Shown: positions 4,094-20,700 of the stretch, one piece after another
Layout: every line of letters starts with the position of its first letter
Numbering within the stretch: position 1 is the first letter of the stretch
Assembly: GCF_000014265.1 (NCBI RefSeq)
Contig: NC_008312.1
Span: 4,350,001-4,382,000 of the forward strand
Source: Trichodesmium erythraeum IMS101
Lineage (GTDB): Bacteria; Cyanobacteriota; Cyanobacteriia; Cyanobacteriales; Microcoleaceae
Reading direction: 5' to 3'
Length of the DNA: 32,000 bases
Notes under the pieces: generated by a model
What the model saw: the letters and a program-made list of their open reading frames with translations, nothing else
The model's database searches: none
What the model was told of the DNA's origin: nothing
Translations under genes and position numbers: made by a program

Positions 4094-5704
4094 ATTATCT
4101 TTTTTTCAATGTCTAAATTCTCTTGAATAGTAAATTAGGAATAACATCGAAACAATATTATAAATAGATTGAGAGATTTCTGCAATAAATGATTGATATC
4201 AAATCTGGTTGATAAAAGCTCAGAGAAAATTTTGATGATTAACTTTCTTAATTATCTAATGTCTCATTTAATCCAGATAAAAGATATTCACCTGATAATA
4301 TAATATCCATAGTTAAAATTTCTAGATATTGATTGTAACATTATTTTGACAATAAGTTTAGACTTGTTTTTTTTGAGAATTAATTAAGTTAATAATAAAC
4401 CTGATGCTCAATATTATCTAATTTTTAGCTATCAAGGTGTGAATTTATCAGATTGAGGCCGTAATTTAATCATAAAATATCAAGAAATAGCAGGAAAAAT
4501 CTTTCTTTTCTGTTGAGTAATAGTTTCCCATTTTTCTAAAGAGACTCAAGAAAAATTAAGGGAGCGATCGCTTCCTCCTGGTCAACTAAATATTAAAACT
4601 ACTCCTAAGTAAGCTTGATAATTCCAGAGACTAATATCAATAATTAAATTAACTTCTTTTTGACCACTTTGCACCACAAGCTGGGAAAATAATAATTAAT
4701 TCTCTTTGATAATTTATTTTTAATTGTAATTCAAGATAGCTTGACACAGTCAAAAAAATTGTTTTCTATTTAGCTTCGTAATTGGATTAAGATTTAATAC
4801 TATAGTTATAAGTTAAAATCTTTTTTCGGTGGAGTCCCCAGGGTAGTTGTCTGGAAAGAGAGAAGAGGTATATTGAGATTTGATAGGCGATCGCTTAGGG
4901 CATGCTAAAGGTTGAGAAGTACTTTTTTGACATTTTTATCAAGAGCTTCACTATAAAAAAAATTGCCCAACGGCAAGGAATATCCTAGATATATTATTTT
5001 AGGGGGATATATTTGGCCAATAACACAGATAAAAGATAAGTTGAGTCACTATTATCTAGGGACGGAGAAGAAAGTAAGTCTGAGGCCAATGGCCCGTAGA
5101 AAGTTGTCTATCCTCAGGAAAAATCAGGAAAAGCAGGAGAGAACTGAGTCGAAAGAAAAGAAAAAGTTGGAGACAGGAGGGAAGCAATTTCAATGAGATA
5201 AAACTATATTTGATGGCCATTCTATCTCTTCATTACCCCATTACCAGAAGAGGTGGCAGAGCTAGAAAAATTTGATTCTGGGGATAGTTGAGTAGAGTTA
5301 GGGGTGAGATAATGTAGGTGAGATTAGATATTCAGGAAATGACAACAGTATCCGTAGAGGTCAAACTATATCTGGTAGTTAAGGCAGAAGAACAAGGGCG
5401 CTGTGAAGTCAAAAGGACAAATTAACTAGAAGATGTAGGAAATTGTTAATAATTAACAGAATTATAGTGTGTTGAGGTAGTTGAGGTAGAAAAAGATGGG
5501 TGTGTTGAAGGTTCCTTAGAGTGAAAGGATAATAGACATATCCAGAAAATCAGTAATTTTATGAAAGCGTTCTATGGAACAGGAAGTAAAAGTAAACAAA
5601 AAAAAATTATTAATTATACAATTCTTAATTATCTGTCTAGTGGCTAAACTAGTTTTTTCCCAATTTCAACTGTCTAGCTCTGGCTAAATTTAAGGTCATC
5701 AGAA

Positions 5705-6000
5705 GCGATCGCTCCCCCCCCATCTTTAGCAATAATATTTATGGTATCAATTATTTTTTTAATATTTCTCTAATATTTTTCTTTTAACTAAAATAGCAGC
5801 ATCTCTAGTAACTTTTGCCAGGGTTGACTAACTGATAAGATATTAGAAGTAGTAAAAAGGAGCGATCGCCACAATAATTTAAATCTTCATTATCTCCTTA
5901 GTAGCTGTTCTAGTCAAAATTGACAGGGCTTTTCAAAGTGATGAACTATATTACCATCACTAAAACCTTCTAAGGAGGTTGCATGAAAACTCCCTACTAT
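5705..6000 (-). pseudogene. decayed C-terminal half of a GT4-type glycosyltransferase (relic 1)
   Basis: Minus-strand translation gives VGSFHATSLEGFSDGNIVHHFEKPCQF* (compare the GT4 PSxxEGFG...G.PVI block). About 25 codons later it gives STLAKVTRDAAILVKRK (compare SSLPEVAGDAAILV). Stops and frameshifts interrupt it. Confidence 0.35.
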
Positions 6001-6040
6001 GGTCTGCCGTGCCGGAAAACTTCTGTATTGTCATTGATAT

Positions 6041-6266
6041 GCGATCGCTCTCCCTATCTTTAGGAATAACATTCATCACATCAGTTATTTCTCCCACATT
6101 TTTCGGTTTAACTAAAATATCAGTATCTCCAGCAACTTCTGACAGGGATGAAATATAACAAGTACTAATACGAATTCGCTCCCATGCATTCTCAGAAAAT
6201 GTAGATAGATATTCCTGTAGGTTCTGGGGTTAATACTGATGAGTTATAAAGAAGTTTCTTAGACAT
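6041..6266 (-). pseudogene. internally deleted glycosyltransferase relic (N-terminal ~30 codons joined to a C-terminal ~37 codons; relic 2)
   Basis: The minus strand from the ATG at 6266 gives MSKKLLYNSSVLTPEPTGISIYIF*, which resembles a GT4 N-terminus. It then gives SSLSEVAGDTDILVKPKNVGEITDVMNVIPKDRESDR. At DNA level 6041..6150 is a diverged copy of 5705..5828. Confidence 0.35.
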
Positions 6267-6605
6267 TAATAGTTAAAGGCAACAATTTTAAAGACTGTAG
6301 GTTAGCTCAGAATGTAGCAAGAACTCTTAGAGTCACCCAATATTTTCACTTAACTAGGTTCAGATCAGATAAAAAATTCTCACCCTTCCAAATGATGGAA
6401 AGAGGAAATCATGTATTTATGCATTAAAATTTAATAAGCTCAAAACTTTGATGCCCTCTGTAATTTTAGGAAATTATTTCAAATTTTAGCTATATTTAAT
6501 TAGTTTAAATTAGTTTAGCCTAAGTTTATCAAATTAGTATAACCTTAAGTTAGGTTAAAATTGAGTCGGCAAATTTCTATATAAATAGTTAAGGGACTTG
6601 AACTG

Positions 6606-8057
6606 ATGAATGAAAGGAAAAAAAGCAGACGAGGTCGTATTCTGACAGATGAAGGGTTTGAGAAACTAAAAAATGCTGTAAATAAAAAGTTTCTCCTTGA
6701 TAATATCGAATCCACAGCTATTGAGCTTACAGAAATGTTAAGTCTAGTTATCCAGAATAAAGGAGAATTTAGTCTAAATACTTTAAAAAAAATCTGGAAG
6801 CGTGAAGAAAATACTGACATAAAATTTATTAAAGTAATAGCTGAAACTTTTGGTTTAAAATTTGAGGATGGTATTGACTATACCTATAAAGATGATACTG
6901 ATAATACTACAGAACAAAAAACTTCTTCTTCTCCTGCTACTGCTAAAATTGATACAGATATAGAAGATTATAATTTGCAGTGGGTAGGTCGCTGTGACCT
7001 AATTTCTGAGTTGAGGCAAAACCTGTTAGGTGAGTTGCGCATAATATCTATTGTTGGCATAACTGGTATTGGTAAAACTTCTCTGGCAATGCAACTTTCT
7101 GTTGACGAGCATATCTCAAATTACCTGACTTCCTCTTGGGTGAATTTTTATGATGCTCCAACTAAAACTTTTGATGTAGTAGCGCGACAGGTATTGGGGG
7201 AAAAGTTGGCTGCACAACCTCAGTTAAAACAGGATCGAGAAGTTCTACTGTTAACAATGATAAATGAGTTACAAGTTCGCCCGACTCTATTAATTATGGA
7301 TATGTTGGAAGGGGTCTTAATGCCTGAGGAGAAAGGTGGTTATCGGTGGAAGGAGGAAGAGTCTATTTTTGCAGATTTTCTAGGAAGAATAATACTAGCT
7401 GAAAATATGCCCTCTCGGATAATACTAACTTCTCAATATAGTTTACCTGTGTTAATACAAAGTAGGTATGATGATGTCCGACTCCTACAAGTCACTCTTA
7501 AGGGTTTAACTCAGGAGGAGTCTTTGGGACTATTTGAGAGCTGGAAAGTTAACATTGAGAATAATCAAATCAAAAATTTTTTAATCAGAATAATTAATAT
7601 TTATGATGGTCATCCTCTAGCTTTAAGGTTGATTGCTGGGGATATTATTAATGAACCTTATGATGGAGATTTTGAAGCTTTTTGGGAAGATAATAAACTA
7701 TATTTTGAAGCGATAGAGTCTCAGAATATAAATGGAGAAAATTTTGAGGGAAAAGATATTATTGATAGGGTTGGCAGTAGAGTGGAGGAAACTTTAAAAC
7801 GTTTATCTGTTTCTCACATTTTTGCTTATTTAATGTTATGTATGGGAGGAGAATTAGAATGTTTTGTAGAGAAAAATGCCTGGCTTCTGCTTTTGTGTAA
7901 TCTACCAAAAGAAGAACAGAATTTAGCTTTTGAAACTTTAAATAAAAGGTTTTTATTGGATCGAAAAAATTTTCAAAATAAAGCTTTTTATCGTCTTCAT
8001 AGTTTAATTAAAAATGTGGCAAATGAATATGATTTGGATAATTTTGAAAAAGATTGA
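6606..8057 (+). CDS. STAND NTPase, NB-ARC/AP-ATPase type, with small HTH-like N-terminal module (cassette 1 NOD)
   Basis: 483-aa ORF. Motifs in order: Walker A VGITGIGKTSLAMQL, Walker B LLIMDMLE, SRIILTSQ (RNBS-B/sensor-1 position), GHPLALRLIAGDI (GxP/GLPL motif), and FYRLHSLIKNV (MHD-like His motif) near the C-terminus. The N-terminal ~90 aa align by eye with the N-terminus of the 11784 paralog. Confidence 0.85.
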   Translation: MNERKKSRRGRILTDEGFEKLKNAVNKKFLLDNIESTAIELTEMLSLVIQNKGEFSLNTLKKIWKREENTDIKFIKVIAETFGLKFEDGIDYTYKDDTDNTTEQKTSSSPATAKIDTDIEDYNLQWVGRCDLISELRQNLLGELRIISIVGITGIGKTSLAMQLSVDEHISNYLTSSWVNFYDAPTKTFDVVARQVLGEKLAAQPQLKQDREVLLLTMINELQVRPTLLIMDMLEGVLMPEEKGGYRWKEEESIFADFLGRIILAENMPSRIILTSQYSLPVLIQSRYDDVRLLQVTLKGLTQEESLGLFESWKVNIENNQIKNFLIRIINIYDGHPLALRLIAGDIINEPYDGDFEAFWEDNKLYFEAIESQNINGENFEGKDIIDRVGSRVEETLKRLSVSHIFAYLMLCMGGELECFVEKNAWLLLLCNLPKEEQNLAFETLNKRFLLDRKNFQNKAFYRLHSLIKNVANEYDLDNFEKD

Positions 8058-8133
8058 TTAACTCGGCTTTAAAAAAAATAAACCTGAAGAAAAATACTTT
8101 TATCAAAATATAGATAATTAATTAAATTTAACC

Positions 8134-11091
8134 ATGGATAAAAAATATCAAATACTTGAAAAAATACAGGGATTATCTATTTATCAATTAAGTAATACTT
8201 ACTATGAAAAATCTGGTAAATTAATCACTGTTAAACCTCAAGAAAAGAAAAATATTTTTCTGAAAAATAGTATAGAAATCATCAAAAAAATTACTAGGTT
8301 GATGAAAATTAACTCTCCCCAAAATAAACTAAATTTATTAGAAAATAACTACTCGCCTCAACCAGAAAAAAAATTAACGGTGAGAGAAAAAGCTAACCTC
8401 CGCCTCGCCTATTATTGGTTAAAAATATATCAACCAGAACCAGGTGCATCTAACTTGGAAAAAGTCAAAGGATATCTGCAAGCCTTCCGTCATTTTGCCA
8501 AAATGGGAGAGTGGGAAAAAGCTAGTCAAATTCTTTCTCTTAAATTACCGCTAGTTGATGAAAATTTAGACACTCAACTAAATAGATGGGGTTACTATGA
8601 GGAATGTATGGAACTCTACAATAAATTATTAGGTAAATTAGACCAAAGCTGGGATGGTATTTGTTTAAATGGTTTGGGAAATGCTTACTTATCTCTCGGA
8701 AAATATCACAAAGCTATTGAGCATTATCAGCAGCACTTACAAATAGCTAAGGAAATAGGTGATCTTGGGGGACAGGGTATTGCTTTAGGGAATTTGGGAG
8801 ATGCTTACCATTCTCTAGAAGAATATAACAAAGCTATTGAGTATCATCAGCAGCATTTACAAATAGCGAAGGAAACAGGGGAACTCGGGGGAGAAGGTAT
8901 TGCTTTAGGGAATTTGGGAAGTGCTTACTATTCCCTGGGAAAATATCACAAAGCTATTGAGTGTCATCAGCAGCATTTACAAATAACAAAGGAAATAGGG
9001 AATATGAAACAGCAGGGCATTGCTTTAGGCAATTTAGGGAATGCTTACCATTCCCTAGGAGCATATCACAAAGCTATGGAATATCATCAACAGGACTTAG
9101 AAATAGTTAGGAAAATAGGCGATCTTGGGGGTGAGGGCATTGCTTTAGGGAATTTGGGAAGTGCTTACTATTCCTTGGGAGAATATCACAAAGCTATTGA
9201 GTCTCATCAGCAGCATTTACAAATAGCTAGAAAAATAGGCAATGTTAAACAGGAGGGTATTGCTTTGGGGAATTTGGGTAATGCTTACCATTCCCTAGGA
9301 GCATATCACAAAGCCATGGAATATCATCAACAGGACTTAGAAATAGTTAGGAAAATAGGGGATCCTGGGGGTGAGGGTAATGCTTTGGGAAATTTGGGTA
9401 ATGCTTACTATTTTTTGGGGGAATATCACAAAGCTATTGAACATCATCAGCAGCATTTACAGATAGCCAGAGAAATAGGTAGCCAGAAAGGAGAGGGTAA
9501 TGCTTTGGGAAATTTGGGTAATGCTTACTATTCTTTGGGGGAATATCACAAAGCTATTGAGCATCATCAGCAGCATTTACAAATAGCCAGAGAAATAGGC
9601 AACCAGAATAGAGAGGGTAATGCTTTGGGGAATTTGGGTAATGCTTACTATTCTTTGGGAGAATATCACAAAGCTATTGAGCATCATCAGCAGCATTTAC
9701 AAATAGCCAAAGAAATAGGCGATCGCTCTGGAGAAGGAAATGCTTTGGAGAATTTGGGTAATGCTTACTATTCCAGCAGAAAATACGACAAAGCTATTGA
9801 ACATCATCAGCAGTATTTACAAATAATTAGAGAAATAGGCGATCGCTCTGGAGAAGGAAATGCTTTGAGGAATTTGGGTAATGCTTACTATTCTAGCAGA
9901 AAATACGACAAAGCTATTGAAGATCATCAGCAATATTTACAAATAGCCCAAGAAATTGGCGATCGCTCTGGAGAAGGAAATGCTTTGGAGAATTTGGGAA
10001 ATGCTTACTATTCCAGCAGAAAATACGACAAAGCTATTGAACATCATCAGCAGTATTTACAAATAGCCCAAGAAATTGGCGATCGCTCTGGAGAAGGAAA
10101 TGCTTTGGGGAATTTGGGTAATGCTTACTGTTCCCTAGGAGAATATTACAAGGCTATTGAACATCATCAGCAGCATTTACAAATAGCCCAAGAAGTTGGC
10201 GATCGCTCTGGAGAAGGAAATGCTTTGGGGAATTTGGGTAATGTTTACTATTCTCTAGGAGAATATCACAAAGCTATTGAACATCATCAGCAGCATTTAC
10301 AAATAGCCCAAGAAATTGGCGATCGCTCTGGAGAAGGAAATGCTTTGGGAAATTTGGGAAATGCTTACTGTTCCCTAGGAGAATATCACAAAGCTATTGA
10401 GCATCATCAGCAGCATTTACAAATAGCCCAAGAAATAGGCGATCGCTATGAGGAGGGTAGTGCTTTGGGGAATTTGGGTAATACTTATGATTTTTTGGGA
10501 GAATACGACAAAGCTATGGAGTATCATCAGCAGCATTTACAAATAGCTAGGGAAATTGGCGATCGCTCTGGAGAGGGTAATGCTTTGGGGAATTTGGGAA
10601 ATGCTTACTATTCCCTGGAAGCATATCACGAAGCTATTGACCATCATCAGCGGCATTTACAAATAGCAAAGGAAACAGGCAACTTTAGAGGGGAGGGTGT
10701 TGCTTTGGGGAATTTAGGAAATGTTTACTTATCCCTAGGAGAATATTACAAGGCGATCGAGTCTTATCAGCAGAGCTTAGAAATAGCTAGAGAAATAGGT
10801 AACCGTTCTGGGGAAGGTGGTGCTTTGGGAAACTGGGGAAAAACTCTCCTCAAATTAGAAAAGTATGCCGACTCTTTGGAATATTCACAAGCAGCATTAG
10901 AGATATTTGAGCAGATAGGAAACCCTCATCACCAAGCAATAGTTCTGAAGAATATAGCAGAAACCTATCAAAATTTGGGGTTTTGGGATATGGCACGGCG
11001 GCATTGCGAGGAGGCGTTGGCTATTTTCACAGAATTAGGAGTGCCAGAGTTGAGAGAATGTCAGGAGTTGTTTGAGGTTCTTGAAAAATAA
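8134..11091 (+). CDS. TPR-repeat protein (20 x 40-residue TPR_12-like units), separate sensor-like partner of the NB-ARC gene (cassette 1)
   Basis: 985-aa ORF, same strand, 77 nt after the NB-ARC stop and in a different frame. A lead-in (...LAYYWLKIYQPE...VKGYLQAFRHFAKMGEWEKA...) is followed by units of the form GNALGNLGNAYYSLGEYHKAIEHHQQHLQIAxEIGDRSGE. Confidence 0.9.
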   Translation: MDKKYQILEKIQGLSIYQLSNTYYEKSGKLITVKPQEKKNIFLKNSIEIIKKITRLMKINSPQNKLNLLENNYSPQPEKKLTVREKANLRLAYYWLKIYQPEPGASNLEKVKGYLQAFRHFAKMGEWEKASQILSLKLPLVDENLDTQLNRWGYYEECMELYNKLLGKLDQSWDGICLNGLGNAYLSLGKYHKAIEHYQQHLQIAKEIGDLGGQGIALGNLGDAYHSLEEYNKAIEYHQQHLQIAKETGELGGEGIALGNLGSAYYSLGKYHKAIECHQQHLQITKEIGNMKQQGIALGNLGNAYHSLGAYHKAMEYHQQDLEIVRKIGDLGGEGIALGNLGSAYYSLGEYHKAIESHQQHLQIARKIGNVKQEGIALGNLGNAYHSLGAYHKAMEYHQQDLEIVRKIGDPGGEGNALGNLGNAYYFLGEYHKAIEHHQQHLQIAREIGSQKGEGNALGNLGNAYYSLGEYHKAIEHHQQHLQIAREIGNQNREGNALGNLGNAYYSLGEYHKAIEHHQQHLQIAKEIGDRSGEGNALENLGNAYYSSRKYDKAIEHHQQYLQIIREIGDRSGEGNALRNLGNAYYSSRKYDKAIEDHQQYLQIAQEIGDRSGEGNALENLGNAYYSSRKYDKAIEHHQQYLQIAQEIGDRSGEGNALGNLGNAYCSLGEYYKAIEHHQQHLQIAQEVGDRSGEGNALGNLGNVYYSLGEYHKAIEHHQQHLQIAQEIGDRSGEGNALGNLGNAYCSLGEYHKAIEHHQQHLQIAQEIGDRYEEGSALGNLGNTYDFLGEYDKAMEYHQQHLQIAREIGDRSGEGNALGNLGNAYYSLEAYHEAIDHHQRHLQIAKETGNFRGEGVALGNLGNVYLSLGEYYKAIESYQQSLEIAREIGNRSGEGGALGNWGKTLLKLEKYADSLEYSQAALEIFEQIGNPHHQAIVLKNIAETYQNLGFWDMARRHCEEALAIFTELGVPELRECQELFEVLEK
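8656..11088 (+). repeat. in-frame tandem array, 120-nt period, 20 units (TPR units of cassette 1)
   Basis: Unit boundaries fall at 8656 + n*120 (checked at 8656 and 9736). Units form local sub-blocks: units 3+4 resemble 5+6 (240-nt super-repeat), units 10-12 share SSRKYDKAIE, and units 13-15 share QIAQE(V/I)GDRSGE. Confidence 0.9.
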
Positions 11092-11094
11092 CTT

Positions 11095-11126
11095 CCCCTT
11101 AACCTCTCCTATATTGTAGGGGTTTT
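11095..11126 (+). terminator. weak candidate intrinsic terminator after the cassette-1 TPR gene
   Basis: CCCCT (11095..11099) pairs with AGGGG (11118..11122) and is followed by TTTT. The stem is only 5 bp and the loop is 18 nt, so this is weak. Confidence 0.25.
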
Positions 11127-11364
11127 CTGGTATTTTTCTATAGCTATTCCATAATGCTCGACGGAATTATATTGCTCCCAAGCCAGGGGATGTGGTCAGA
11201 GTGATAATTCTCATTTTTTCATTTTTGATTTCCATTGGTTGGCTTGGAGCAATTTTCCGGCAGGGTATACCCCAGTAGGGAACCTATTCTGCAACGTCCT
11301 ACTGGGTTTCACTAATGACGATGATGCCATTTGCTGAGATATAGCGCTTTTGCATAAATTCTGA

Positions 11365-11538
11365 TTATTTATGCTTTCGTTTTTGTATCATGACTGGACG
11401 TAACACCCACAGTAAAAAGGCAACTGCTAAAATAATGCCGGTGGGACTGTTTCCATTTTTTAATAATGGAGTTGGATCTATGGGTAAAATGTTTGTGTTA
11501 GGTTGACTGCTACAAAGTATATTTTGTTTAGAAAACAT
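11365..11538 (-). CDS. possible small membrane-anchored protein (57 aa)
   Basis: This is the internal start of the track ORF 11365..11667: MFSKQNILCSSQPNTNILPIDPTPLLKNGNSPTGIILAVAFLLWVLRPVMIQKRKHK. The ATG is preceded by AAGGA about 9 nt upstream. The C-terminus is a hydrophobic helix plus a KRKHK tail. I recognise no homology. Confidence 0.25.
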   Translation of the reverse strand: MFSKQNILCSSQPNTNILPIDPTPLLKNGNSPTGIILAVAFLLWVLRPVMIQKRKHK

Positions 11539-11772
11539 CTTTTTTTTCCTTAAAGTATATTGGGTTTTTTTCAGGACTGACGCCAACTCACATAAAGACG
11601 CCATATTTAAGGGCGAATAGCATTTCCCCTCAGGGTCAGGGCCTAGCCGTGGGTAAGTCCTGTTCATATTTCTATCTTATTATGAGGTTTGGCAAGTCAA
11701 GGTGCAGTAATAGCTCAGTGTTTCTCATTGGAAAAAAAGTGAGCTATAATTGATCCGAAAAAAGGTTATTTT

Positions 11773-11777
11773 GGAGG
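11773..11777 (+). promoter_or_regulatory. Shine-Dalgarno-like GGAGG, 6 nt upstream of the cassette-2 NB-ARC start
   Basis: ttGGAGGtatgatATG; the spacing fits a ribosome-binding site. Confidence 0.5.
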
Positions 11778-11783
11778 TATGAT

Positions 11784-13232
11784 ATGGCGGTTAGTCTCAG
11801 AGCTTCTAGAGAGGGGCTGCAAAAGGTTGATGCAGCTAGAAAAAAGAAAGGTTGGACAAAAGCAGAGGATGCTTGGTGGGGACTAGCCCCAACTTCAAAA
11901 GCAACTTTAAAACGTTTTTGGCGCAGCATTCCCATTGAACGAGAAGCTTTTATTGCTATTTGTGAGAATGTTGGGGTTAACTGGGAAGAAATAGTGGACG
12001 AGACTCCTCCCTCACCTGACAGTTCTACTGTTAAATTTTTTTCTTATGATAATATTTGGGTGGGTAGAGAGGACCTGATAGCTGAACTTTCTACAAAAGT
12101 TAAAGAGTCTTGCCGCTTACTTATTCTTGTTGGTCTTAGTGGTATTGGTAAAACTGCTTTGGCTGAAAAATTAGCAGTGGAGCTACAGAAAGAATTTTTG
12201 CAGGGAGACTGGAGCAAGTTTCACCAGGAAAATTTGGAAAATACTGAAGCTAGAGATTTTCGTAGTGTTGCTTTTCGGTGGTTGAAAAAATGGGGTGAGT
12301 CTCTGACTCCTGATGATTTTAAGGATGTGAATAGGTTACTCTATAGACTGGTTTATCGTTTGCGAGAACATCGGTATTTGATAATTATTGACTCTCTGGA
12401 AAATATTTTGGTGGGAAATGAGGATCAGGGATGGAATAATTTTGAGGATAAGTTGTGGGTGAAATTTTGGGAGTTGTTTTTGGCATCTCCAGAATGTCAA
12501 AGTCGGATCATTTTGACTTCCCAAGACTTGCCTGAGGAAATTCCTGGACGTTATCAGAATTTCTGGGAGCATAAAGTTTTGACTGGTTTGAGTAAGTCGG
12601 AGCAGTTGCAGTTATTTGGGAAAACTGGGTTGGAGGTTGAGGAAAATTCTGTGAATTTACCTTATCTACAAAGTATTGGTAATGCTTATGAGGGTCATCC
12701 TTTGGCGTTGCGGGTCATTGCGGGGGAAATTTGTGGCAAACCTTTTAATGGTAATGTGGTGGCTTATTGGAAAAAGTATGGTAAAGAAATTGAAGAGGTG
12801 GAAAAGGCTATTGAGGAAGGGAGGACTCAGGGGGTAACTGTTGGTGCTGATGATAAGTTTCAGCTAGACAGATATACCCGTATGTTGCGGAAAAATGTCA
12901 GTCAACGACTAGATAAAACTTTTCTCCGGTTGCAGAAAGATGCTGTTAATGCTTATCGGTTAATTTGTGTTGGTGCAATATATAGGTGTGAGGTGCCAGA
13001 GAGTTTTTGGTTGAAACTTTTGAAAACTTGGCAGTGCGATGAAGAAAAGCAAGAGGCGGCATTGCAGACTTTGCGCGATCGCTTTTTGGTTGAGGATGTG
13101 GGAGTTGATGAAAGTGGTGAGTTTCTATTTAGGCAACATAATTTAATTCGTAGTGTGTCACTAGAACATTTAAAAAAATTGGATAAAGCAAGAGGTGGCA
13201 TTGCAGAATTTATGCGATCGCTTTTTGGTTGA
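11784..13232 (+). CDS. STAND NTPase, NB-ARC/AP-ATPase type, with HTH-like N-terminal module (cassette 2 NOD)
   Basis: 482-aa ORF. The N-terminus LRASREGLQKVDAARKKKGWTKAED...SKATLKRFWRSIPIEREAFIAICENVGVNWEEIVD is XRE-HTH-like. Motifs: Walker A VGLSGIGKTALAEKL, Walker B YLIIIDSLE, SRIILTSQ, GHPLALRVIAGEI, and FRQHNLIRSV (MHD-like). The 3' end is altered by a 139-bp tandem duplication. Confidence 0.88.
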   Translation: MAVSLRASREGLQKVDAARKKKGWTKAEDAWWGLAPTSKATLKRFWRSIPIEREAFIAICENVGVNWEEIVDETPPSPDSSTVKFFSYDNIWVGREDLIAELSTKVKESCRLLILVGLSGIGKTALAEKLAVELQKEFLQGDWSKFHQENLENTEARDFRSVAFRWLKKWGESLTPDDFKDVNRLLYRLVYRLREHRYLIIIDSLENILVGNEDQGWNNFEDKLWVKFWELFLASPECQSRIILTSQDLPEEIPGRYQNFWEHKVLTGLSKSEQLQLFGKTGLEVEENSVNLPYLQSIGNAYEGHPLALRVIAGEICGKPFNGNVVAYWKKYGKEIEEVEKAIEEGRTQGVTVGADDKFQLDRYTRMLRKNVSQRLDKTFLRLQKDAVNAYRLICVGAIYRCEVPESFWLKLLKTWQCDEEKQEAALQTLRDRFLVEDVGVDESGEFLFRQHNLIRSVSLEHLKKLDKARGGIAEFMRSLFG

Positions 13233-13323
13233 GGATGTGGGAGTTGATGAAAGTGGTGAGATTCTACTTAGGCAACATAATTTAATTCGTAGTATGTCAC
13301 TGGAACATTTAAAAAAATTGGAT
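13046..13323 (+). repeat. 139-bp tandem duplication (13046..13184 and 13185..13323) across the 3' end of the NB-ARC gene
   Basis: The two copies align base for base with a handful of substitutions (for example the HIP1 sites at 13075 and 13214 are offset by 139). Because 139 is not a multiple of 3, copy 2 is read out of frame and the ORF stops at 13230..13232. Confidence 0.9.
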
Positions 13324-15670
13324 GAGGAAGATGGTTGATACTGAAAATAATACCCAAGGTGGAGTTATTCTACCTTCTGCTGAGTCTGTTTTGAAATTGT
13401 TGAACCTGGACCCTGATGGCCTTATGTCCATTAAGCCACTTTCCAAACGTCTTCAATATCAGGCTGTTATTATCTGGTTGAGTGACTACAAATGTCCGCA
13501 AAGAGTAAATGATAATTTAGAGGTGGTAAAAGGCTATCTGGAAGCATTTTATCATCTTTGTGAAGTGGGAGACTGGGAACGAGCAAAGCAAATTTATTTT
13601 ATTAAAGTACCGCCAGTTAATGAAGAGTTACGTACTCAACTAATGAGGTGGGGTTGTTATAAGGAATGTATTCAACTCTACAGTAGACTATTAGGTAAAT
13701 TAGACCAATATTGGGATGGTATTTGTTTAACTGATTTAGGTAATGTTTACTATTCCCAAGGAGAATATGACAAAGCTATGGAGTATTATCAGCAGCGTTT
13801 ACAAATAGCTAGGGAAATTGGCGATCGTTCTGGGGAGGGTGGTGCTTTGGGGAATTTGAGTAATGTTTACTATTCCCAAGGAGAATATGACAAAGCTATG
13901 GAGTATTATCAGCAGTCTTTACAAATAGCTAGGAAAATTGGCAACCGTTCTTGGGAGGTTGCTGCTTTGATAGGTTTGGGTGATTTTTACGATTCCCAAG
14001 GAGAATATGACAAAGCTATGGAGTATTATCAGCAGTCTTTACAAATAGCTAGGGAAATAGGCAACCGCTCTGGGGAGGGTATTGCTTTGGGAAATTTGGG
14101 TAATGTTTACTATTCCCAAGGAGAATATGACAAAGCTATGGAGTATCATCAGCAGGATTTACAAATAGCTAGGGAAATTGGCAACCGTTCTGGGGAGGGT
14201 ATTGCTTTGGTGAATTTGGGTGTAGTTTACAATTCCCAAGGAGAATATGACAAAGCTATGGAGTATTATCAGCAGTCTTTACAAATAGCTAGGGAAATTG
14301 GCGATCGCTCTGGGGAGGGTGGTGCTTTGGGAAATTTGGGTAATGTTTACAATTCCCAAGGAGAATATGACAAAGCTATGGAGTATTATCAGCAGTCTTT
14401 ACAAATAGCTAGGGAAATTGGCGATCGCTCTGGGGATGGTAATGCTTTGATGGGTTTGGGTAATGTTTACTATTCCCAAGGAGAATATGACAAAGCTATG
14501 GAGTATTATCAGCAGCATTTACAAATAGCTAGGGAAATAGGCGATCGCTCTGGGGAGGGTCGTACTTTGGGGAATTTGGGTCTTGTTTACTATTCCCAAG
14601 GAGAATATGACAAAGCTATGGAGTCTTATCAGCAGGATTTACAAATAGCTAGGGAAATAGGCGATCGCTCTGGGGAGGGTATTTCTTTGGGGAATTTGGG
14701 TGATGTTTACTATTCCCAAGGAGAATATGACAAAGCTATGGAGTATTATCAGCAGCATTTACAAATAGCTAGGGAAATTGGCGATCGCTCTGGGGAGGGT
14801 AATGCTTTGATGGGTTTGGGTAATGTTTACCATTCCCAAGGAGAATATGACAAAGCTATGGAGTATTATCAGCAGTCTTTACAAATAGCTAGGGAAATTG
14901 GCAACCGTTCTGGGGAGGGTAATGCTTTGGGGAATTTGGGTAATGTTTACAATTCCCAAGGAAAATATGACAAAGCTATGGAGTATTATCAGCAGCATTT
15001 ACAAATAGCAAGGGGAATTGGCGATCGTTCTGGGGAGGGTCGTGCTTTGGGAAATTTGGGTGTAGTTTACAATTCCCAAGGAGAATATGACAAAGCTATG
15101 GAGTATTATCAGCAGTCTTTACAAATAGCTAGGCAAATAGGCAACCGTTATGGGGAGAGTAATACTTTGGGGAATTTGGGTAATGTTTACAATTCCCAAG
15201 GAGAATATGACAAAGCTATGGAGTATCATCAGCAGTCTTTACAAATAGCTAGGCAAATAGGCAACCGTTCTGAGGAGGGTATTGTTTTAGGGAATTTGGG
15301 TAAAGTTTACAATTCCCAAGGAGAATATGACAAAGCTATGGAGTATCATCAGCAGTCTTTACAAATAGCTAGGGAAATAGGCAACCGTTATTGGGAGGGT
15401 ATTGCTCTAGGAAATTGGGGAGAAACTCTGCTCAAGTTAGAAAAATATGCCGCATCTCTGGAATATTCACAAGCTGCATTAGAGATATTTAAGCAGATAG
15501 GAAACCCTCATCACCAAGGAATAGCTCTTAAGAATATAGCAGAAACTCATCAACATTTAGGAAATTTAGATGCAGCACGACAGTATTGCGATGAGGCATT
15601 AGCTATTTTCACAGAATTAGGAGCGCCAGAATTGAAAGAATGTCAAGAATTCCGCGATAAATTGGGGTAG
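13322..15670 (+). CDS. TPR-repeat protein (16 x 40-residue units), separate sensor-like partner (cassette 2)
   Basis: 782-aa ORF with an alternative start at ATG 13331. The lead-in ...VKGYLEAFYHLCEVGDWERA...RWGCYKECIQLYSRLLGKLDQYWDG is homologous to the cassette-1 lead-in. Units have the form GxALGNLGNVYxSQGEYDKAMEYYQQxLQIAREIG(D/N)RSGE. The C-terminal cap is about 80% identical by eye to the cassette-1 cap. Confidence 0.9.
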   Translation: MRKMVDTENNTQGGVILPSAESVLKLLNLDPDGLMSIKPLSKRLQYQAVIIWLSDYKCPQRVNDNLEVVKGYLEAFYHLCEVGDWERAKQIYFIKVPPVNEELRTQLMRWGCYKECIQLYSRLLGKLDQYWDGICLTDLGNVYYSQGEYDKAMEYYQQRLQIAREIGDRSGEGGALGNLSNVYYSQGEYDKAMEYYQQSLQIARKIGNRSWEVAALIGLGDFYDSQGEYDKAMEYYQQSLQIAREIGNRSGEGIALGNLGNVYYSQGEYDKAMEYHQQDLQIAREIGNRSGEGIALVNLGVVYNSQGEYDKAMEYYQQSLQIAREIGDRSGEGGALGNLGNVYNSQGEYDKAMEYYQQSLQIAREIGDRSGDGNALMGLGNVYYSQGEYDKAMEYYQQHLQIAREIGDRSGEGRTLGNLGLVYYSQGEYDKAMESYQQDLQIAREIGDRSGEGISLGNLGDVYYSQGEYDKAMEYYQQHLQIAREIGDRSGEGNALMGLGNVYHSQGEYDKAMEYYQQSLQIAREIGNRSGEGNALGNLGNVYNSQGKYDKAMEYYQQHLQIARGIGDRSGEGRALGNLGVVYNSQGEYDKAMEYYQQSLQIARQIGNRYGESNTLGNLGNVYNSQGEYDKAMEYHQQSLQIARQIGNRSEEGIVLGNLGKVYNSQGEYDKAMEYHQQSLQIAREIGNRYWEGIALGNWGETLLKLEKYAASLEYSQAALEIFKQIGNPHHQGIALKNIAETHQHLGNLDAARQYCDEALAIFTELGAPELKECQEFRDKLG
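13718..15667 (+). repeat. in-frame tandem array, 120-nt period, 16 units (TPR units of cassette 2)
   Basis: Units start at 13718 + n*120. The 14 core units (13718..15397) are nearly identical, including at synonymous sites. Differences cluster at a few codons. Confidence 0.92.
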
Positions 15671-15953: not shown

Positions 15954-16712
15954 ATGGTAAACTACAACAAATTACTTAATCTACCATCAAGTGACGAATT
16001 ACCAGATTCAGATAACAAACCCGTGGATCATGAAATACAAGTTATTATTCCTAACCTGCTCAAACAGATTTTAAATCTATTGTGGGGCGATCGCCAAGAT
16101 TGGTTTTTTGGGGTCAACATGGGAATTTACCACACCACAGGGTCAAACCCTAGAATTGCCATAGTTCCTGATGGTTTCCTCAGTTTAGGAGTGACACGAC
16201 TCAAAAATGATAACTTGCGACCCTCCTATATTCTTTGGGAGGAAAATTATATTGTTCCCATACTGGTATTAGAAATTGTTTCTAAAACCTATGGGGATGA
16301 ATACGAGCAAAAAATGATTGATTATGCTCGTATGGGAGTATTATATTATGTCATCTATAACCCAGATTATTCCAAGCGGGACAAACACAAACAATTTGAA
16401 GTATATCATTTACGAAATGGAGTATACGAACCTCAGCTCGGAAATCCCGTGTGGATGCCAGAAATTGGTCTAGGGATAGGGTCTGAAGTTGGTAATCATG
16501 AACGTTGCCAAAGAGAGTGGTTGTATTGGTATGACTCTCAAGGGAACAGGCTCATGACCCCAGAAGAGAAAACACTTCAGCAACAACAACGAGCTGAACA
16601 AGAACGGCAACGAGCTGAACAAGAACGGCAACGAGCTGAACAAGAACGGCAACGAGCTGAAAAACTTGAACAAATGTTACGTTCTCTTGGCATTGATCCA
16701 GAACAGTTATAG
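15954..16712 (+). CDS. Uma2-family (DUF820) PD-(D/E)xK nuclease-like protein
   Basis: 252-aa ORF. IAIVPDGF and LVLEIVSKTY match the Uma2 PD...E.xS/K core. The C-terminus has a coiled-coil (QRAEQER)n tail ending in LRSLGIDPEQL, which I recall as typical of cyanobacterial Uma2 proteins. Confidence 0.8.
   Translation: MVNYNKLLNLPSSDELPDSDNKPVDHEIQVIIPNLLKQILNLLWGDRQDWFFGVNMGIYHTTGSNPRIAIVPDGFLSLGVTRLKNDNLRPSYILWEENYIVPILVLEIVSKTYGDEYEQKMIDYARMGVLYYVIYNPDYSKRDKHKQFEVYHLRNGVYEPQLGNPVWMPEIGLGIGSEVGNHERCQREWLYWYDSQGNRLMTPEEKTLQQQQRAEQERQRAEQERQRAEQERQRAEKLEQMLRSLGIDPEQL
16587..16662 (+). repeat. perfect 21-nt tandem repeat, 3.6 copies (caacgagctgaacaagaacgg), encoding (QRAEQER)n
   Basis: Units at 16587..16607, 16608..16628 and 16629..16649 are identical. 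A fourth partial unit runs to 16662. Confidence 0.95.
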
Positions 16713-17769: not shown

Positions 17770-20700
17770 ATGATAAAGATGTTCGAAACAGGTGACATAA
17801 ATGTCAACAAAATCGATGACCCCCTCGTTCCCTTAGAGGGGCAGTCTGATGTTGAACAGATAATCACAAGCAGTAGTACAAGCAATATAGAACATAATTT
17901 CCTTGGTTTATCTTCTGAGTCAGAGTTGCTTGATACAGCTGAAAGTCTCTCTAAAAGTACAGAAACAACCGTAGAAAAGACAGAGATTATAACCCCAGGA
18001 GACGTCAAAGGGACAGAGAAAGAGGATATTGATACTATTACTGGTGAAGCACTAAAAAACCTCAATGTTACTCCTCTAGAAGAAGACCTACTAACTAAAA
18101 CTAGGATTACAAACCGGAAAAGGAGCAAAAAGATAGACCCCGGGAGTGATGCCGAAAATGCTCATGACTTGGACAAAATCGGAAAATCTCCGACTACATA
18201 TAATGAAAAGATTGGGTATAGATCTGGTGGTTCGAGGGACAAAAGTGACTACTACAAATTCACCCTCCAAGGCCAGAAAAAGCAAAAATTCAACGACTTA
18301 AATATTGTCCTTGATGGTCTAAATGCTAATGCTAATATTCAACTTTTTGATGAGGATGGCAAAACTATTATCGACCAGTCGCGAAAAAAGGGCAAGAGGG
18401 AGGAGGAAATTAACCAAATACTCAATAATGGGACTTATTACTTGAACGTTCAAGCCCAAGGTAAGGCTAAAACTCAATATAGTTTGAGTTTGAGTTCGGA
18501 TCAGGTCAAAGACGAAGATGGTAAAAGGAAAGATGCACAAGATTTGGGCTCACTCAAAAAGAAGCCTCAACGCATTAAGGATGACATTGGTTTCCAACTG
18601 GGGAGCGTTCGCGACCAAAAAGACTTTTTTGAGTTTTCTGTGAATAGAGACAGTGAAGTTACTATTACCCTTGATGCTTTAAAGGAAGATGCTAATCTGA
18701 AGCTCTTGAATAAACAGGGTAGTTTGCTGTTTAGTTCTAGCAATGAAAATCGCGAAAAAGAAAAGATTAATACTATTCTGGAGAAAGGTAAATATTTTGT
18801 AGAAGTCGCTCCAGAATCAGGCGATCGTACCAATTATATGTTGAGTCTAAGTGCCGATGATGAAATTGAAGACCCGGACGGTCAAATACCAGGGAAAAAC
18901 CTGGGAAAACTTACATCTAAAACCATCAGCAAAACGGACAGGATAGGTTCTCAAAGGGGTTTTATAGACAGTGACGACTTCTGGGAATTTCAACTAACCA
19001 AAGAGACAGATTTAACTATAAATCTTGACAGCTTGAAGGCAAATGCTGACTTGGAACTGTACGATAGTGATGGAACTACTTTGATTTTTAGTTCCAAGAA
19101 CGAAGGCAGAGAAGAGGAAGAAATAGAGGCTATTTTAGAAAAAGGTATTTATTATGTTCGAGTGAAATCTGTCGGTGGTAGCAGTACCAAGTACAGACTG
19201 AGTTTATCTGGGGATACCGATATAACTGAGGAAGATGACAAACTGCCAGGAACGTCATTGGGAGAATTGGGTGCTGAAGAAGTAACGCAACGGGATAGAA
19301 TAGGCTTCGGAAGAGGTAGCCTTCGCGACTTTCAAGACTATTATAGCTTTAGCTTAGGAGAAAAAAGTGATGTTAATATTAGCCTTGATAACTTGAGAGC
19401 TAATGCTGAGTTAGAGTTATTAGGAATTGATGGTCGAACTATTGAAAAATCGAACAAAAAAGGGCGAGCTAGTGAAACAATTGACAGCATACTCGCTCCT
19501 GGAGATTACTATGTTAAAGTGTCTCCCGTAGGGAAAGCGAAAACTAAATACGATTTGGGGTTAACTGCAAATCCGGCCATTGATGATTATTCAAATCCTA
19601 AACAGGCTAAAGAAATTGGAATTCTTTATGAAGAAAATACCTATGAAGAAACTAATGAAATTGGTTTTAAACGAGGTAGTGTTCGTGACTTTGCTGACTA
19701 CTTTCATTTTGAGTTAGCTCAGTCCCAGCAAGTTAATATTTCTCTTGATAACTTGAGGAAAAATGCCGGTTTGCAGTTACTTGGTGGTGAAAACGGTAAG
19801 AAACAGATAGAGATATCTAATGAAAAAGGCCGCCAACCGGAGGAAATTAATAAAGATTTGGAACCGGGCAATTATTATGTCAAGGTCTTTTCGGTTGGCA
19901 AGTTAAAAACTGGATATGAGTTGAGTTTTGAGGCTTTATCGCCAGATGAAGCGCCTTATGTAGTTGCTCCAGGTATTGAGGATGTCAAGGTAAAAGAAGA
20001 CAGAAATATTCGTCCTTTTAATGTCTCCAAGTTCTTCAAAGATCCAGATAGCAGAATTGAAACAATAGAGGTGACAGACAATACCAACCCGGGACTAGTA
20101 ATTCCTTCAGAGAAAAACAAAAATCTCAAAGGTAAGAAATTAGAGTTAGAGTTGGTCAAAAATCAGAATGGTTATGGGGAGATTACCATTACCGCAACTT
20201 CCAAAGGTAAGACGGTCTCCGATACTTTCGCTGTCGACGTAACTCCAGTAGACGATCCACCAAAACTTAAGTTGCCGATCGACAATGTTAATGTTGATGA
20301 AGATGCTCCTAAAAAGGAAATCACTTTATCTAATCATTTTGAGGACATCGACAGCGATCTTACATATAAGGTCATCAATAACAATAACGGTAGTTTGCTT
20401 TCTCCTTCTATTAACGGCAACACCCTCACCTTAGAATTTTCAAAGGACCAGAATGGTGAAGCCAAAATTAAGGTTCAGGCAACTGGTGATGGTAAATCTG
20501 TTACTGATACTTTTACTGTGAATGTTGATCCAGTGGACGATCCACTGTTTGTTGACAAACCCAGAGAAAATTTATCTGTTGAGGAAGATAATCCTAACGA
20601 GGTCATCGATCTGTCAAAAGTTTTTAAGGACATAGATAGCCAGATAACTTTAGCTTTTAGCGACGATAACAACACCAACCAAAACTTAGTCAAGGCAACT

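Follow-up and report, generated by a model that had tools for sequence, protein, structure and literature searches.

A 32,000-nt stretch of the genome of Trichodesmium erythraeum IMS101 (contig NC_008312.1, positions 4,350,001 to 4,382,000 of the forward strand, referred to here as the window) harbors two tandem gene cassettes, each of which consists of a gene for a nucleotide-binding oligomerization domain (NOD) protein with an NB-ARC NTPase and a separate gene for a tetratricopeptide repeat (TPR) protein. On balance, such a cassette probably encodes a two-subunit receptor that resembles the NOD-like receptors (NLRs), belongs to the AP-ATPase clade of the signal transduction ATPases with numerous domains (STAND), is split into a switch and a sensor protein, and has a transcriptional output. 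A more specific version of this reading is decidedly tentative. It holds that the helix-turn-helix (HTH) of the oligomerized NOD switches on a 57-aa membrane protein that kills or arrests the cell, and that one NOD pairs with interchangeable TPR sensors, the split being adaptive. A preliminary description of the locus had offered an NLR-like sensor and an HTH-STAND transcription switch as alternatives; these are not mutually exclusive, and the evidence favors an NLR-like sensor with transcriptional output.

An exact-sequence look-up identifies the genes in question, together with their downstream neighbor, as Tery_2808 to Tery_2812. In the first cassette, NOD1 (Tery_2808, 6606-8057, plus strand, 483 aa) comprises a diverged XRE-like HTH at about residues 1-95, the NB-ARC NTPase, a helical domain and a winged helix, which forms the C-terminus and ends just past the His motif. 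TPR1 (Tery_2809, 8134-11091, plus strand, 985 aa) comprises a helical lead-in of 170 aa, 20 TPR units of 40 aa and a C-terminal cap. In the second, NOD2 (Tery_2810, 11784-13232, plus strand, 482 aa) has an XRE-type HTH at about residues 1-75 (nt 11784-12008), the NB-ARC NTPase and a winged helix, and TPR2 (Tery_2811, 13322-15670, plus strand, 782 aa) has a lead-in of 128 aa, 16 units of 40 aa and a cap. Each TPR gene lies in a different frame from its NOD gene, behind a gap of 76 nt in cassette 1 and 89 nt in cassette 2. The coordinates of these four open reading frames (ORFs) and the counts of 20 and 16 forty-residue units had been given exactly in the preliminary description.

The separation of the NOD from its repeats is, on strong comparative evidence, the ancestral and conserved norm of this family. 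In a genomic survey that took one genome per species (78 loci with 79 NOD genes, the junctions being analyzed by script), a separate same-strand ORF for a lead-in plus TPRs lies directly behind 58/79 NOD genes, and there is only one fusion (L040, Mastigocoleus). In 36 cases the NOD stop and the TPR start overlap by 1-26 nt, typically as ATGA, ATGxxTAA or TAGTG, and in 10 a gap of 0-12 nt separates them, so that 46/58 starts lie within -26 to +12 nt. The commonest junction is a 4- or 8-nt stop/start overlap, and such an overlap is by its sequence typical of translational coupling. Among the homologs of NOD2 (n=946), the best 120 are almost all stand-alone NB-ARC proteins of 457-490 aa from filamentous cyanobacteria, and stand-alone homologs are found in Okeania, Dapis, Trichodesmium, Microcoleus, Planktothrix, Anabaena and Coleofasciculus. 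An exhaustive HMMER search with NOD1 gave 1373 matches, of which the closest ~45 (E <1e-38) are ~420-530 aa in length and all end at the NOD C-terminus, C-terminal extensions of >250 aa being found only among the more distant matches. The survey of fused versus split architecture in related cyanobacteria that had been proposed beforehand thus finds the split to be dominant, and it bears out the earlier suggestion that a NOD plus a separate sensor is a functional design rather than a frameshift artefact.

Variants of the family share this arrangement. NODs that carry PNP or TIR domains (see below) likewise have separate lead-in and TPR partner genes, and at least nine loci have 2-4 lead-in plus TPR genes behind one NOD (for instance L017, L026 and L039); separate genes may allow sensors to be exchanged or multiplied. 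In L207, the TPR gene follows a NOD1-type NOD (43-44% identical) with a GTGA overlap, and its lead-in aligns over the full length to LEAD1 (E 1e-38), better than to LEAD2 (E 2e-27). A lead-in that is nearer to LEAD1 beside a NOD1-type NOD indicates that NOD and lead-in subtypes travel together. The TPR2 lead-in as a protein query on its own returned 12 candidates, all short fragments that are uninformative on fused versus split. The searched literature covers NB-ARC-TPR architectures in multicellular bacteria, high internal repeat conservation, HTH, PNP, TIR and EAD modules and one AP-ATPase/TPR separation, in the context of FxSxx peptides, and its papers on conflict systems (PMC8195603) typically have the NTPase and the repeats on one polypeptide. 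No description of a split HTH-NOD/TPR family, of its operator or of its small partner gene was found in that literature, an absence that is no proof of the family being undescribed.

By sequence criteria, both NODs are STAND NTPases of the NB-ARC/AP-ATPase clade. The Pfam NB-ARC model (PF00931) scores 32.7 bits with NOD1 and 35.2 bits with NOD2 against a gathering cut-off of 23.5, and the NACHT model (PF05729) gives 25.7 bits with NOD2, which is under its cut-off of 26.7 and below the NB-ARC score, and no match in NOD1. A profile of the NOD family matches, in the Protein Data Bank (PDB), the NB-ARC regions of the plant NLRs Roq1 (E 5e-6), Sr35, MLA13 and NRC. The Walker A/B, GxP and MHD-like His motifs stand in canonical order, and in alignments of 10 and 61 members GIGKT, hhhhD..E, SRIILTSQ, GHPLALR and RxH(N/S)LI(R/K) form invariant or near-invariant columns. 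Walker A (G120-T124) and D203/E206 are invariant across the family, as are the columns of the GxP-type GHPLALR (G304-R310) and of the MHD-like R450/H452 (RQHNLIR / RLHSLIK). An AlphaFold2 (AF2) model of a natural fused allele has STAND-TPR protein 6mfv as its top Foldseek match (E 1.7e-14), followed by the peptide-binding TPRs of LGN/Pins and KLC and by the NRC and Sr35 resistosomes; its fold over residues 314-402, which follow GHPLALR, is of low confidence only (pLDDT <50). The profile searches that had been proposed for NB-ARC and TPR were run, and the assignments of the preliminary description hold for both. Pfam finds neither an enzymatic domain nor a LuxR/GerE match in the cassette proteins.

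The N-terminal module of the NODs is supported at family level as a predicted HTH of the XRE/Cro-C1 fold, formal Pfam membership being below threshold for NOD1 and NOD2 themselves, where none of the Pfam HTH models reaches E 0.01. Across 33 family N-termini, HTH_26 is matched in 13/33, HTH_3 in 6/33 (best E 9e-6) and HTH_31 in 3/33, and the NOD1 N-terminus matches an HTH profile that was built without NOD1 (E 6.5e-7). The best PDB profile match of the module is the phage repressor 5d50 (E 0.024). An AF2 model of residues 1-95 has five helices (pLDDT 72), and the top 50/50 Foldseek matches to it in the PDB are XRE-family HTHs, with a probability of 0.99 for the best and of 0.80-1.00 across the 50, and a TM-score of 0.6-0.69 for the best-matching small HTH chains. 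These include VanU, the ComR DNA-binding domain, CapH, HipB, ClgR, SinR, PrgX, P22 c2 and C-proteins. Profiles, model and fold matches thus support the HTH-like module of the preliminary description.

This module appears to occupy the position of an effector. In orthologous NODs that are 55-64% identical over the NOD, the HTH is replaced by PNP_UDP_1 (L025, L026, L039, L045, L068), by SEFIR/TIR_2 (L037, L042) or by PNP plus TIR (L039, L068), and L025 and L037 have in addition an EAD8 at the C-terminus; the IMS101 NODs have the HTH as their sole variable module. The HTH would thereby be a variable module on a constant NTPase core, as in conflict systems, in which PNP, TIR, EAD and HTH domains serve as effector or adaptor modules (Kaur et al. 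2020, PMC7159879) and HTH effectors have been read as pointing to a transcriptional response (PMC8195603, a follow-up). The earlier statement that the cassettes lack an effector therefore stands for enzymatic domains and falls for the HTH, which sits at the effector position and has a conserved cognate operator-like motif. A subclade of HTH-NODs has a clearer XRE HTH (L056, L061, L063, L064, L066, L067, L069, L070, L072, L073, L075, L078); no downstream lead-in plus TPR gene is detected in it, except in L075. In this subclade the NOD is divergent from a reverse transcriptase (RT)-Cas1 fusion (Pfam RVT_1 plus Cas_Cas1), accompanied by 23S-rRNA-IVP four-helix-bundle genes, in what looks like a neighborhood of CRISPR type III adaptation.

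The main evidence that the NOD HTH would bind DNA and at least autoregulate is an operator-like motif. In the NOD2 promoter region, the element (11705-11756, plus strand) consists of TAGCTCA (11711-11717), inverted relative to TGAGCTA-N4-TGATCC (11740-11756). It coincides in part with a promoter-like TTCTCA-17-TATAAT (11722-11750), 28 nt 5' of the ATG, and Okeania and Dapis retain it although their intergenic region has otherwise diverged. The family consensus is a direct repeat, TGAGCCA-N4-TGAGCC, with a period of 11 nt, often with one to three inverted TGGCTCA copies 20-30 nt upstream of it, and the element as a whole is located 40-100 nt before the ATG. With up to two mismatches allowed, 51 matches occur on both strands of 1.93 Mb of locus sequence, and 23/51 are coding-strand matches in the 200 nt that precede a NOD start, where ~0.4 would be expected. 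The motif precedes 27/56 NOD genes of the HTH type and 0/17 of the non-HTH types (Fisher p 1e-4), and after a crude removal of close relatives 14/38 and 0/11 (p 0.014).

The upstream inverted repeat of NOD2 was also considered as an RNA hairpin, and this was rejected: what is conserved is the sequence itself, with no compensatory changes (L009 has TAACTCA against TGAGCTA), and the right arm overlaps the -10-like box. A metagenome scan for the exact operator TGAGCCAAAAYTGAGCC yielded 121 sites, of which 6 adjoin a NOD, all of the Microcoleus type; the others are chance matches or unrelated 11-nt arrays with no further HTH-bearing genes downstream, and a regulon could not be defined in this way. 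The 11-nt unit TGAGCCAAAAC/T is also found in longer tandem arrays of 3 to 6 or more copies on metagenome contigs (L106, L118, L139, L162, L178, L179, L190, L202), with no NOD gene within 2.5 kb. NOD1-type genes have a conserved upstream block of their own that differs from the NOD2-type operator motif; in IMS101 it is ccttaagttaggttaaaatTGAGTCGgcaaattt (~6541-6576), conserved with L204.

The TPR proteins carry a pattern that would be expected of NLR sensors. All units of TPR1 and TPR2 are exactly 40 residues long, Tandem Repeats Finder recovers period-120 arrays of 18.1 copies in TPR1 (8673-10841) and 14.1 copies in TPR2 (13734-15420), and Pfam gives very large TPR_12, TPR_1 and TPR_MalT scores to both proteins. 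The core units of TPR2 are 90% identical at the nucleotide level and have almost no synonymous differences. Their nonsynonymous differences cluster at helix-A unit positions 6, 7, 9, 10, 13 and 16, and also at 28, 31, 37 and 40. The helix-A sites are TPR positions 2, 3, 5, 6, 9 and 12 in the usual numbering (unit position minus 4), which presumably line the concave, ligand-binding face. The apparent number of units differs between Trichodesmium alleles (~5, 8, 12 and 16), with assembly collapse as a possible cause. The repeats of fungal and bacterial NLRs likewise combine strong internal conservation with variability that is focused on certain sites (10.1101/2020.01.06.895854). By this analysis of their repeats, the arrays behave like NLR sensors, homogenized and hypervariable at a few positions.

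A candidate target of the transcriptional output is a small gene that the preliminary description had missed. It lies on the minus strand at 11365-11538 (ATG at 11538, stop 11365-11367), divergent from NOD2 and inside a 100-aa ORF (11365-11667), and encodes a 57-aa protein, MFSKQNILCSSQPNTNILPIDPTPLLKNGNSPTGIILAVAFLLWVLRPVMIQKRKHK, with a polar N-terminal part (SQPxTNILPIDPTPLL), a single hydrophobic helix and a basic tail; the membrane helix is C-terminal and there is no signal peptide. Homologs lie on the opposite strand, 120-500 nt 5' of an HTH-type NOD, in L006, L007, L027, L050, L041, L074, L048, L036 and L043, with L024 marginal, and all hidden Markov model matches with E <1e-3 in ~1 Mb of loci are at that divergent position. 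The gene has a dN/dS of 0.13-0.28, and its family comprises 315 members of 57-90 aa from filamentous cyanobacteria, all of them annotated as hypothetical; none of the Pfam, NCBIfam and PADLOC models matched the small protein. In an independent test, four diverse small proteins from outside the locus set (Microseira, Scytonema PCC 7110, Nostoc and Trichocoleus) led to 7 places. The small gene is divergent from an HTH-NOD at a distance of 150-300 nt in 7/7 (all four look-ups), a TPR-repeat gene follows the NOD in 6/7 (with a recognizable lead-in in 4), and an operator-like element lies in the shared intergenic region in 6/7. The Uma2 nuclease-like gene downstream of TPR2, which had been named as the only effector candidate in cis, shows some recurrent linkage to such cassettes, and the conserved divergent small gene is a better candidate, or at any rate a further one. 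Small membrane proteins of a second family, unrelated to the first (126-130 aa, MVTEFTPILFAVDPIITPIL...), are found at the same divergent position in L204 (1324-1704, minus strand), L205 and L009 (6258-6647, minus strand), upstream of the closest NOD1 homolog and of one Okeania NOD2 ortholog.

Three states of the NOD2/TPR2 junction, overlapping, duplicated and fused, coexist in Trichodesmium. IMS101 has the duplicated state, a tandem duplication at the NOD2 3' end (13046-13184 / 13185-13323, plus strand; 2 x 139 nt, 2.0 copies, 94% identical). Because 139 = 3n+1 shifts the frame, NOD2 acquires a new tail of 15 residues, KARGGIAEFMRSLFG, and a stop at 13232 that lies 89 nt short of TPR2. In the second copy the ancestral end ...LKKLDEEDG-TGA survives, and its TGA overlaps the TPR2 start (ATGGTTGA). 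The ...KLDEEDG C-terminus is found in Okeania P0004 and Trichodesmium P0296, and at the junction the Okeania DNA matches the second IMS101 copy exactly. The duplication broke the NOD2/TPR2 overlap in IMS101 and uncoupled the two genes; the duplicated tail is common to a 92%-identical cluster of 115 sequences. A relic ORF of 47 aa runs from GTG 13195 to TGA 13336-13338, overlapping the TPR2 ATG codons 13322 and 13331, and is called as a gene in other assemblies; it might relay translation to TPR2.

The fused state is found in other Trichodesmium assemblies, one of them isolate 21-75, as NOD2-TPR2 proteins of 665 (partial), 769, 889 and 1049 aa. These fused alleles (P0295, P0001, P0297 and P0300, the last at L005:1923-4232) do not carry the 139-nt duplication and have lost 1 nt where stop and start overlap, from GATGGTTGATAC to GATGGCT-ATAC. 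The TGA that overlaps the TPR start codon is present in the outgroups Okeania and Dapis, which makes fusion the derived state. Two local frame-shift patches are likewise common to the fused alleles; through one of them P320, invariant in the family, is lost, and by this comparison the fused alleles may be under relaxed constraint. The preliminary description had supposed that single fused genes in close relatives would point to pseudogenization of the split ones; such genes do exist, but the polarity is the opposite, fusion having arisen by the 1-nt deletion.

From these elements, a sequence of events can be proposed. The lead-in would dock the TPR protein on the NOD and keep the latter in an ADP-bound off state, until a protein or peptide ligand, probably of phage or other non-self origin, binds to the variable concave face of the TPRs. 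Ligand binding would permit nucleotide exchange and oligomerization of the NOD, and the clustered HTHs could then bind the 11-nt-phased TGAGCCA repeats cooperatively and alter transcription of the NOD operon itself. In the NOD2 type, transcription of the divergent 57-aa membrane protein would be altered too, and this protein would be the most likely executor, perhaps a small membrane toxin or a holin-like protein. At the sister loci, the equivalent sensor would drive the fused PNP or TIR enzyme directly.

An alternative, unlikely although the best of those considered, is that the cassettes encode an ordinary STAND transcription regulator of the MalT, GutR or AfsR kind, which senses an endogenous metabolite or peptide and controls a physiological regulon with no part in immunity or cell death. 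MalT and its LAL relatives, the SARP-NB-ARC-TPR protein AfsR and Bacillus GutR (the last likened on architecture) share with the cassettes an NTP-gated NOD, a TPR-type sensor and a DNA-binding domain. The cassettes have the domain order N-terminal HTH, NB-ARC/AAA_16 NOD and TPR, the separate TPR proteins score 106 and 198 bits with TPR_MalT against a cut-off of 45, and AAA_16 is matched as well. The phased promoter repeats, which form a conserved operator-like motif at the cassettes' own promoter, recall MalT boxes, and the IMS101 cassettes lack a toxin domain and lie in a housekeeping-like chromosomal neighborhood. However, the HTH of MalT is C-terminal and of the LuxR type and that of AfsR is a SARP winged helix, whereas here it is N-terminal and of the XRE type, with the sensor on a separate protein. 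Moreover, the orthologous NODs swap the HTH for PNP, TIR/SEFIR or carry EAD8, all characteristic of conflict systems, the homogenized and hypervariable TPR arrays would be unexpected for a metabolite sensor, copy number and junctions differ between Trichodesmium strains, and the related TPR-less subclade adjoins RT-Cas1.

Less probable again is a module for peptide signaling or for self/non-self recognition, similar to the RNPP receptors (PlcR, NprR, PrgX, ComR, Rap), in which the small protein would be a peptide's precursor or its membrane-displayed form, the TPR protein would bind that peptide and the NOD-HTH would turn the binding into a transcriptional response, with kin or allorecognition as a possible function in colonial filaments. 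As in the RNPP receptors, an XRE HTH, a TPR protein that may bind peptides and an adjacent, conserved small ORF occur together. RNPP_C matches TPR2 with 57 bits against a cut-off of 26.5, the DNA-binding domains of PrgX and ComR are among the Foldseek matches of the HTH, and LGN/KLC-type TPRs are among the fold matches. Such TPRs are generally known to bind extended peptides. Kaur et al. 2020 (PMC7159879) also link AP-ATPase-TPR proteins to peptide systems. RNPP receptors, however, have no NTPase, whereas here an NB-ARC intervenes and the HTH is on one protein and the TPR on another; the small protein carries a membrane helix at its C-terminus instead of a signal peptide at its N-terminus. The N-terminal segment of this small protein shows conservation from genus to genus while the TPR face is hypervariable, and NOD1 and many HTH-type loci have no detectable small gene.

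The HTH could also merely be an autorepressor, the real effector being another protein in cis or in trans, for instance the downstream Uma2 nuclease or effectors elsewhere in the genome; this is a little more doubtful still. The gene at 15954-16712 (Tery_2812, plus strand) encodes a PD-(D/E)xK-like protein of the Uma2/DUF820 family (Pfam Uma2, E 4e-16) and is possibly an accessory component of the cassette. Orthologs of it are found downstream of NOD2-TPR orthologs in the Okeania-type loci L006, L008 and L009, and same-strand Uma2-family genes lie within 800 nt of the cassette in ~15/78 loci, where ~3.5 would be expected. Loci with a Uma2 gene beside NOD cassettes comprise L006, L008, L009, L011-L015, L029, L041, L055, L061, L062, L070, L072-L074 and L214; in L214 the gene is located between the NOD and TPR genes, with a 4-nt overlap at the NOD stop. 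The HTH fold is also that of defence regulators, for example CapH. Against this, Uma2 genes occur in these genomes at very high density (~1 per 27 kb of flanks), many of the adjacent cases are mutually close relatives, no adaptor domain is common to the NOD or TPR and Uma2, and most cassettes are without a Uma2 neighbor. The Uma2 gene of IMS101 contains a perfect 21-nt tandem repeat (16587-16661, 3.6 copies), which encodes (QRAEQER)n in the C-terminal tail.

That the cassettes are decaying frameshift pseudogenes of once-fused NB-ARC-TPR genes is largely refuted and very improbable. In its favor are the wealth of pseudogenes and non-coding DNA in Trichodesmium, the disruption of the NOD2 3' end by the 139-nt duplication and the occurrence of fused alleles among close relatives. 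Against it, splitting is the rule in the family, with overlapping stop/start codons that are conserved, both NOD genes of IMS101 are uninterrupted ORFs with all family-invariant motifs, the tail that bears the duplication is common to the 115-sequence cluster, and the fused state is derived.

Several observations weigh against the favored reading of a split receptor with transcriptional output. The IMS101 junctions themselves, with gaps of 76 and 89 nt, both lack the overlap that is typical of the family, and, as fused alleles exist in Trichodesmium, the split cannot be a strict requirement. For fused allele P0001, the AF2 model used as a proxy for the NOD:TPR complex (pTM 0.39) is confident for the HTH, nucleotide-binding and TPR parts; the lead-in (458-594) has a pLDDT <50, and there is no confident interface between it and the NOD. 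Assignment of the variable sites to the concave face draws on what is generally known of TPRs and not on a structure of this protein. The Foldseek E-values of the HTH are weak (0.04-0.3), as is expected for a domain of 70 aa. Defence-system models from PADLOC and NCBIfam did not match the NODs: Avs4 of PADLOC reaches 12.6 bits (E 0.0036, P-loop only) and Avs4 of NCBIfam 14.2 bits against 1500. Once close relatives are removed, the small gene and the HTH type are not significantly associated, many HTH-type loci have no detectable small gene, and NOD1 in IMS101 has none. We infer its effector role purely from the arrangement described above, and the small protein could instead be a ligand or an anchor. 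Finally, the surroundings in IMS101 consist of ABC transporters and a giant surface protein, with no obvious defence island, and a search of the literature for the locus tags Tery_2808-2812 returned no paper and no experimental or expression data.

The cassettes fit no definition of Avs, bNACHT, MalT/LAL or RNPP systems, and they differ from the usual STAND proteins in not having the repeats on the same polypeptide. They resemble the AP-ATPase/NB-ARC STAND-TPR proteins, such as Apaf-1, plant NLRs and the Pyrococcus protein 6MFV, in the NB-ARC profile, the motif order, the helical and winged-helix modules and the presumed TPR sensor, but NOD and repeats are here two polypeptides, with the break right after the winged helix, and the N-terminal module is an XRE HTH and not a CARD, TIR or CC domain. 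With Avs/AVAST, bNACHT and the NTP-dependent conflict systems (Kaur, Burroughs, Iyer & Aravind 2020/2021) they have in common a variable N-terminal module, a STAND core, superstructure-forming repeats and an enrichment in filamentous cyanobacteria; the Avs and bNACHT models do not match the cassette NODs, and in those systems the NTPase and repeats are typically one polypeptide. In the fungal and bacterial NLRs (HET-E/NWD; Dyrka et al.), the units are similarly 80-90% identical, with variation at few positions and a strain-variable copy number, but here the repeats are on a protein of their own, and no amyloid (BASS) motif or Bell/HeLo partner is seen.

The two cassettes of IMS101 themselves are old paralogs from different subfamilies that are arranged in tandem. 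NOD1 and NOD2 are 32-35% identical and the cassettes as a whole ~35%, and 0/200 NOD2-type sequences are closer to NOD1 than to NOD2. The nearest relative of NOD1 is P0129 (69% identical), and NOD1 forms a subfamily of its own. With such low identity, and with each NOD having closer relatives elsewhere, a recent tandem duplication is ruled out; the term "tandemly duplicated" in the preliminary description was right as to the arrangement and overstated as to recency. Directly 3' of the TPR1 stop lies a terminator-like hairpin with a T-run (11106-11122, plus strand), found by a consensus scan only. Because this hairpin follows TPR1 and the promoter-like site precedes NOD2, the sequence suggests that cassettes 1 and 2 are separate operons.

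Elsewhere in the window, the ~2.5 kb that lie 5' of NOD1 (4094-6605) contain no ORF of more than 80 aa and no Rfam match, and the Rfam scan of the whole window likewise gave no matches. A low coding density is typical of Trichodesmium. Downstream, an ORF of 2337 aa (17770-24783) carries PPC and bacterial cadherin-like domains and contains 294-nt tandem repeats, with 7.1 copies at 21088-23180 and 2.0 copies at 23535-24110 (95% identical); in L001, a metagenome-assembled genome from this species, collapse has reduced it to 1342 aa. At the Microcoleus-type loci (L011-L015, L018, L029, L041, L060, L074), genes for DUF2786/DUF7168, DUF790 (Bax1-like) and an XPB-type helicase follow the cassette on the minus strand, and the DUF2786, DUF790 and helicase neighbors persist even between NODs that are only 45-65% identical.

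NLR and STAND receptors are central to the innate immunity of plants, animals, fungi and bacteria, and have nearly always been studied as single polypeptides with a fused effector. The family described here is widespread in cyanobacteria and combines a split of sensor and switch with an output that alternates between HTH, PNP and TIR, the HTH version having an operator-like motif and a small partner. It may therefore offer a handle on how a sensor controls a NOD in trans, on the mixing and matching of sensors, and on NLR-like signaling through transcription. For Trichodesmium, a bloom-forming and nitrogen-fixing organism, programmed cell death and phage interactions are important and mechanistically unexplained. 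If the more specific and tentative version of the reading were true, in which one NOD serves interchangeable sensors, the cassettes would be an analog, at the level of subunits, of the sensor/helper NLR networks of plants.

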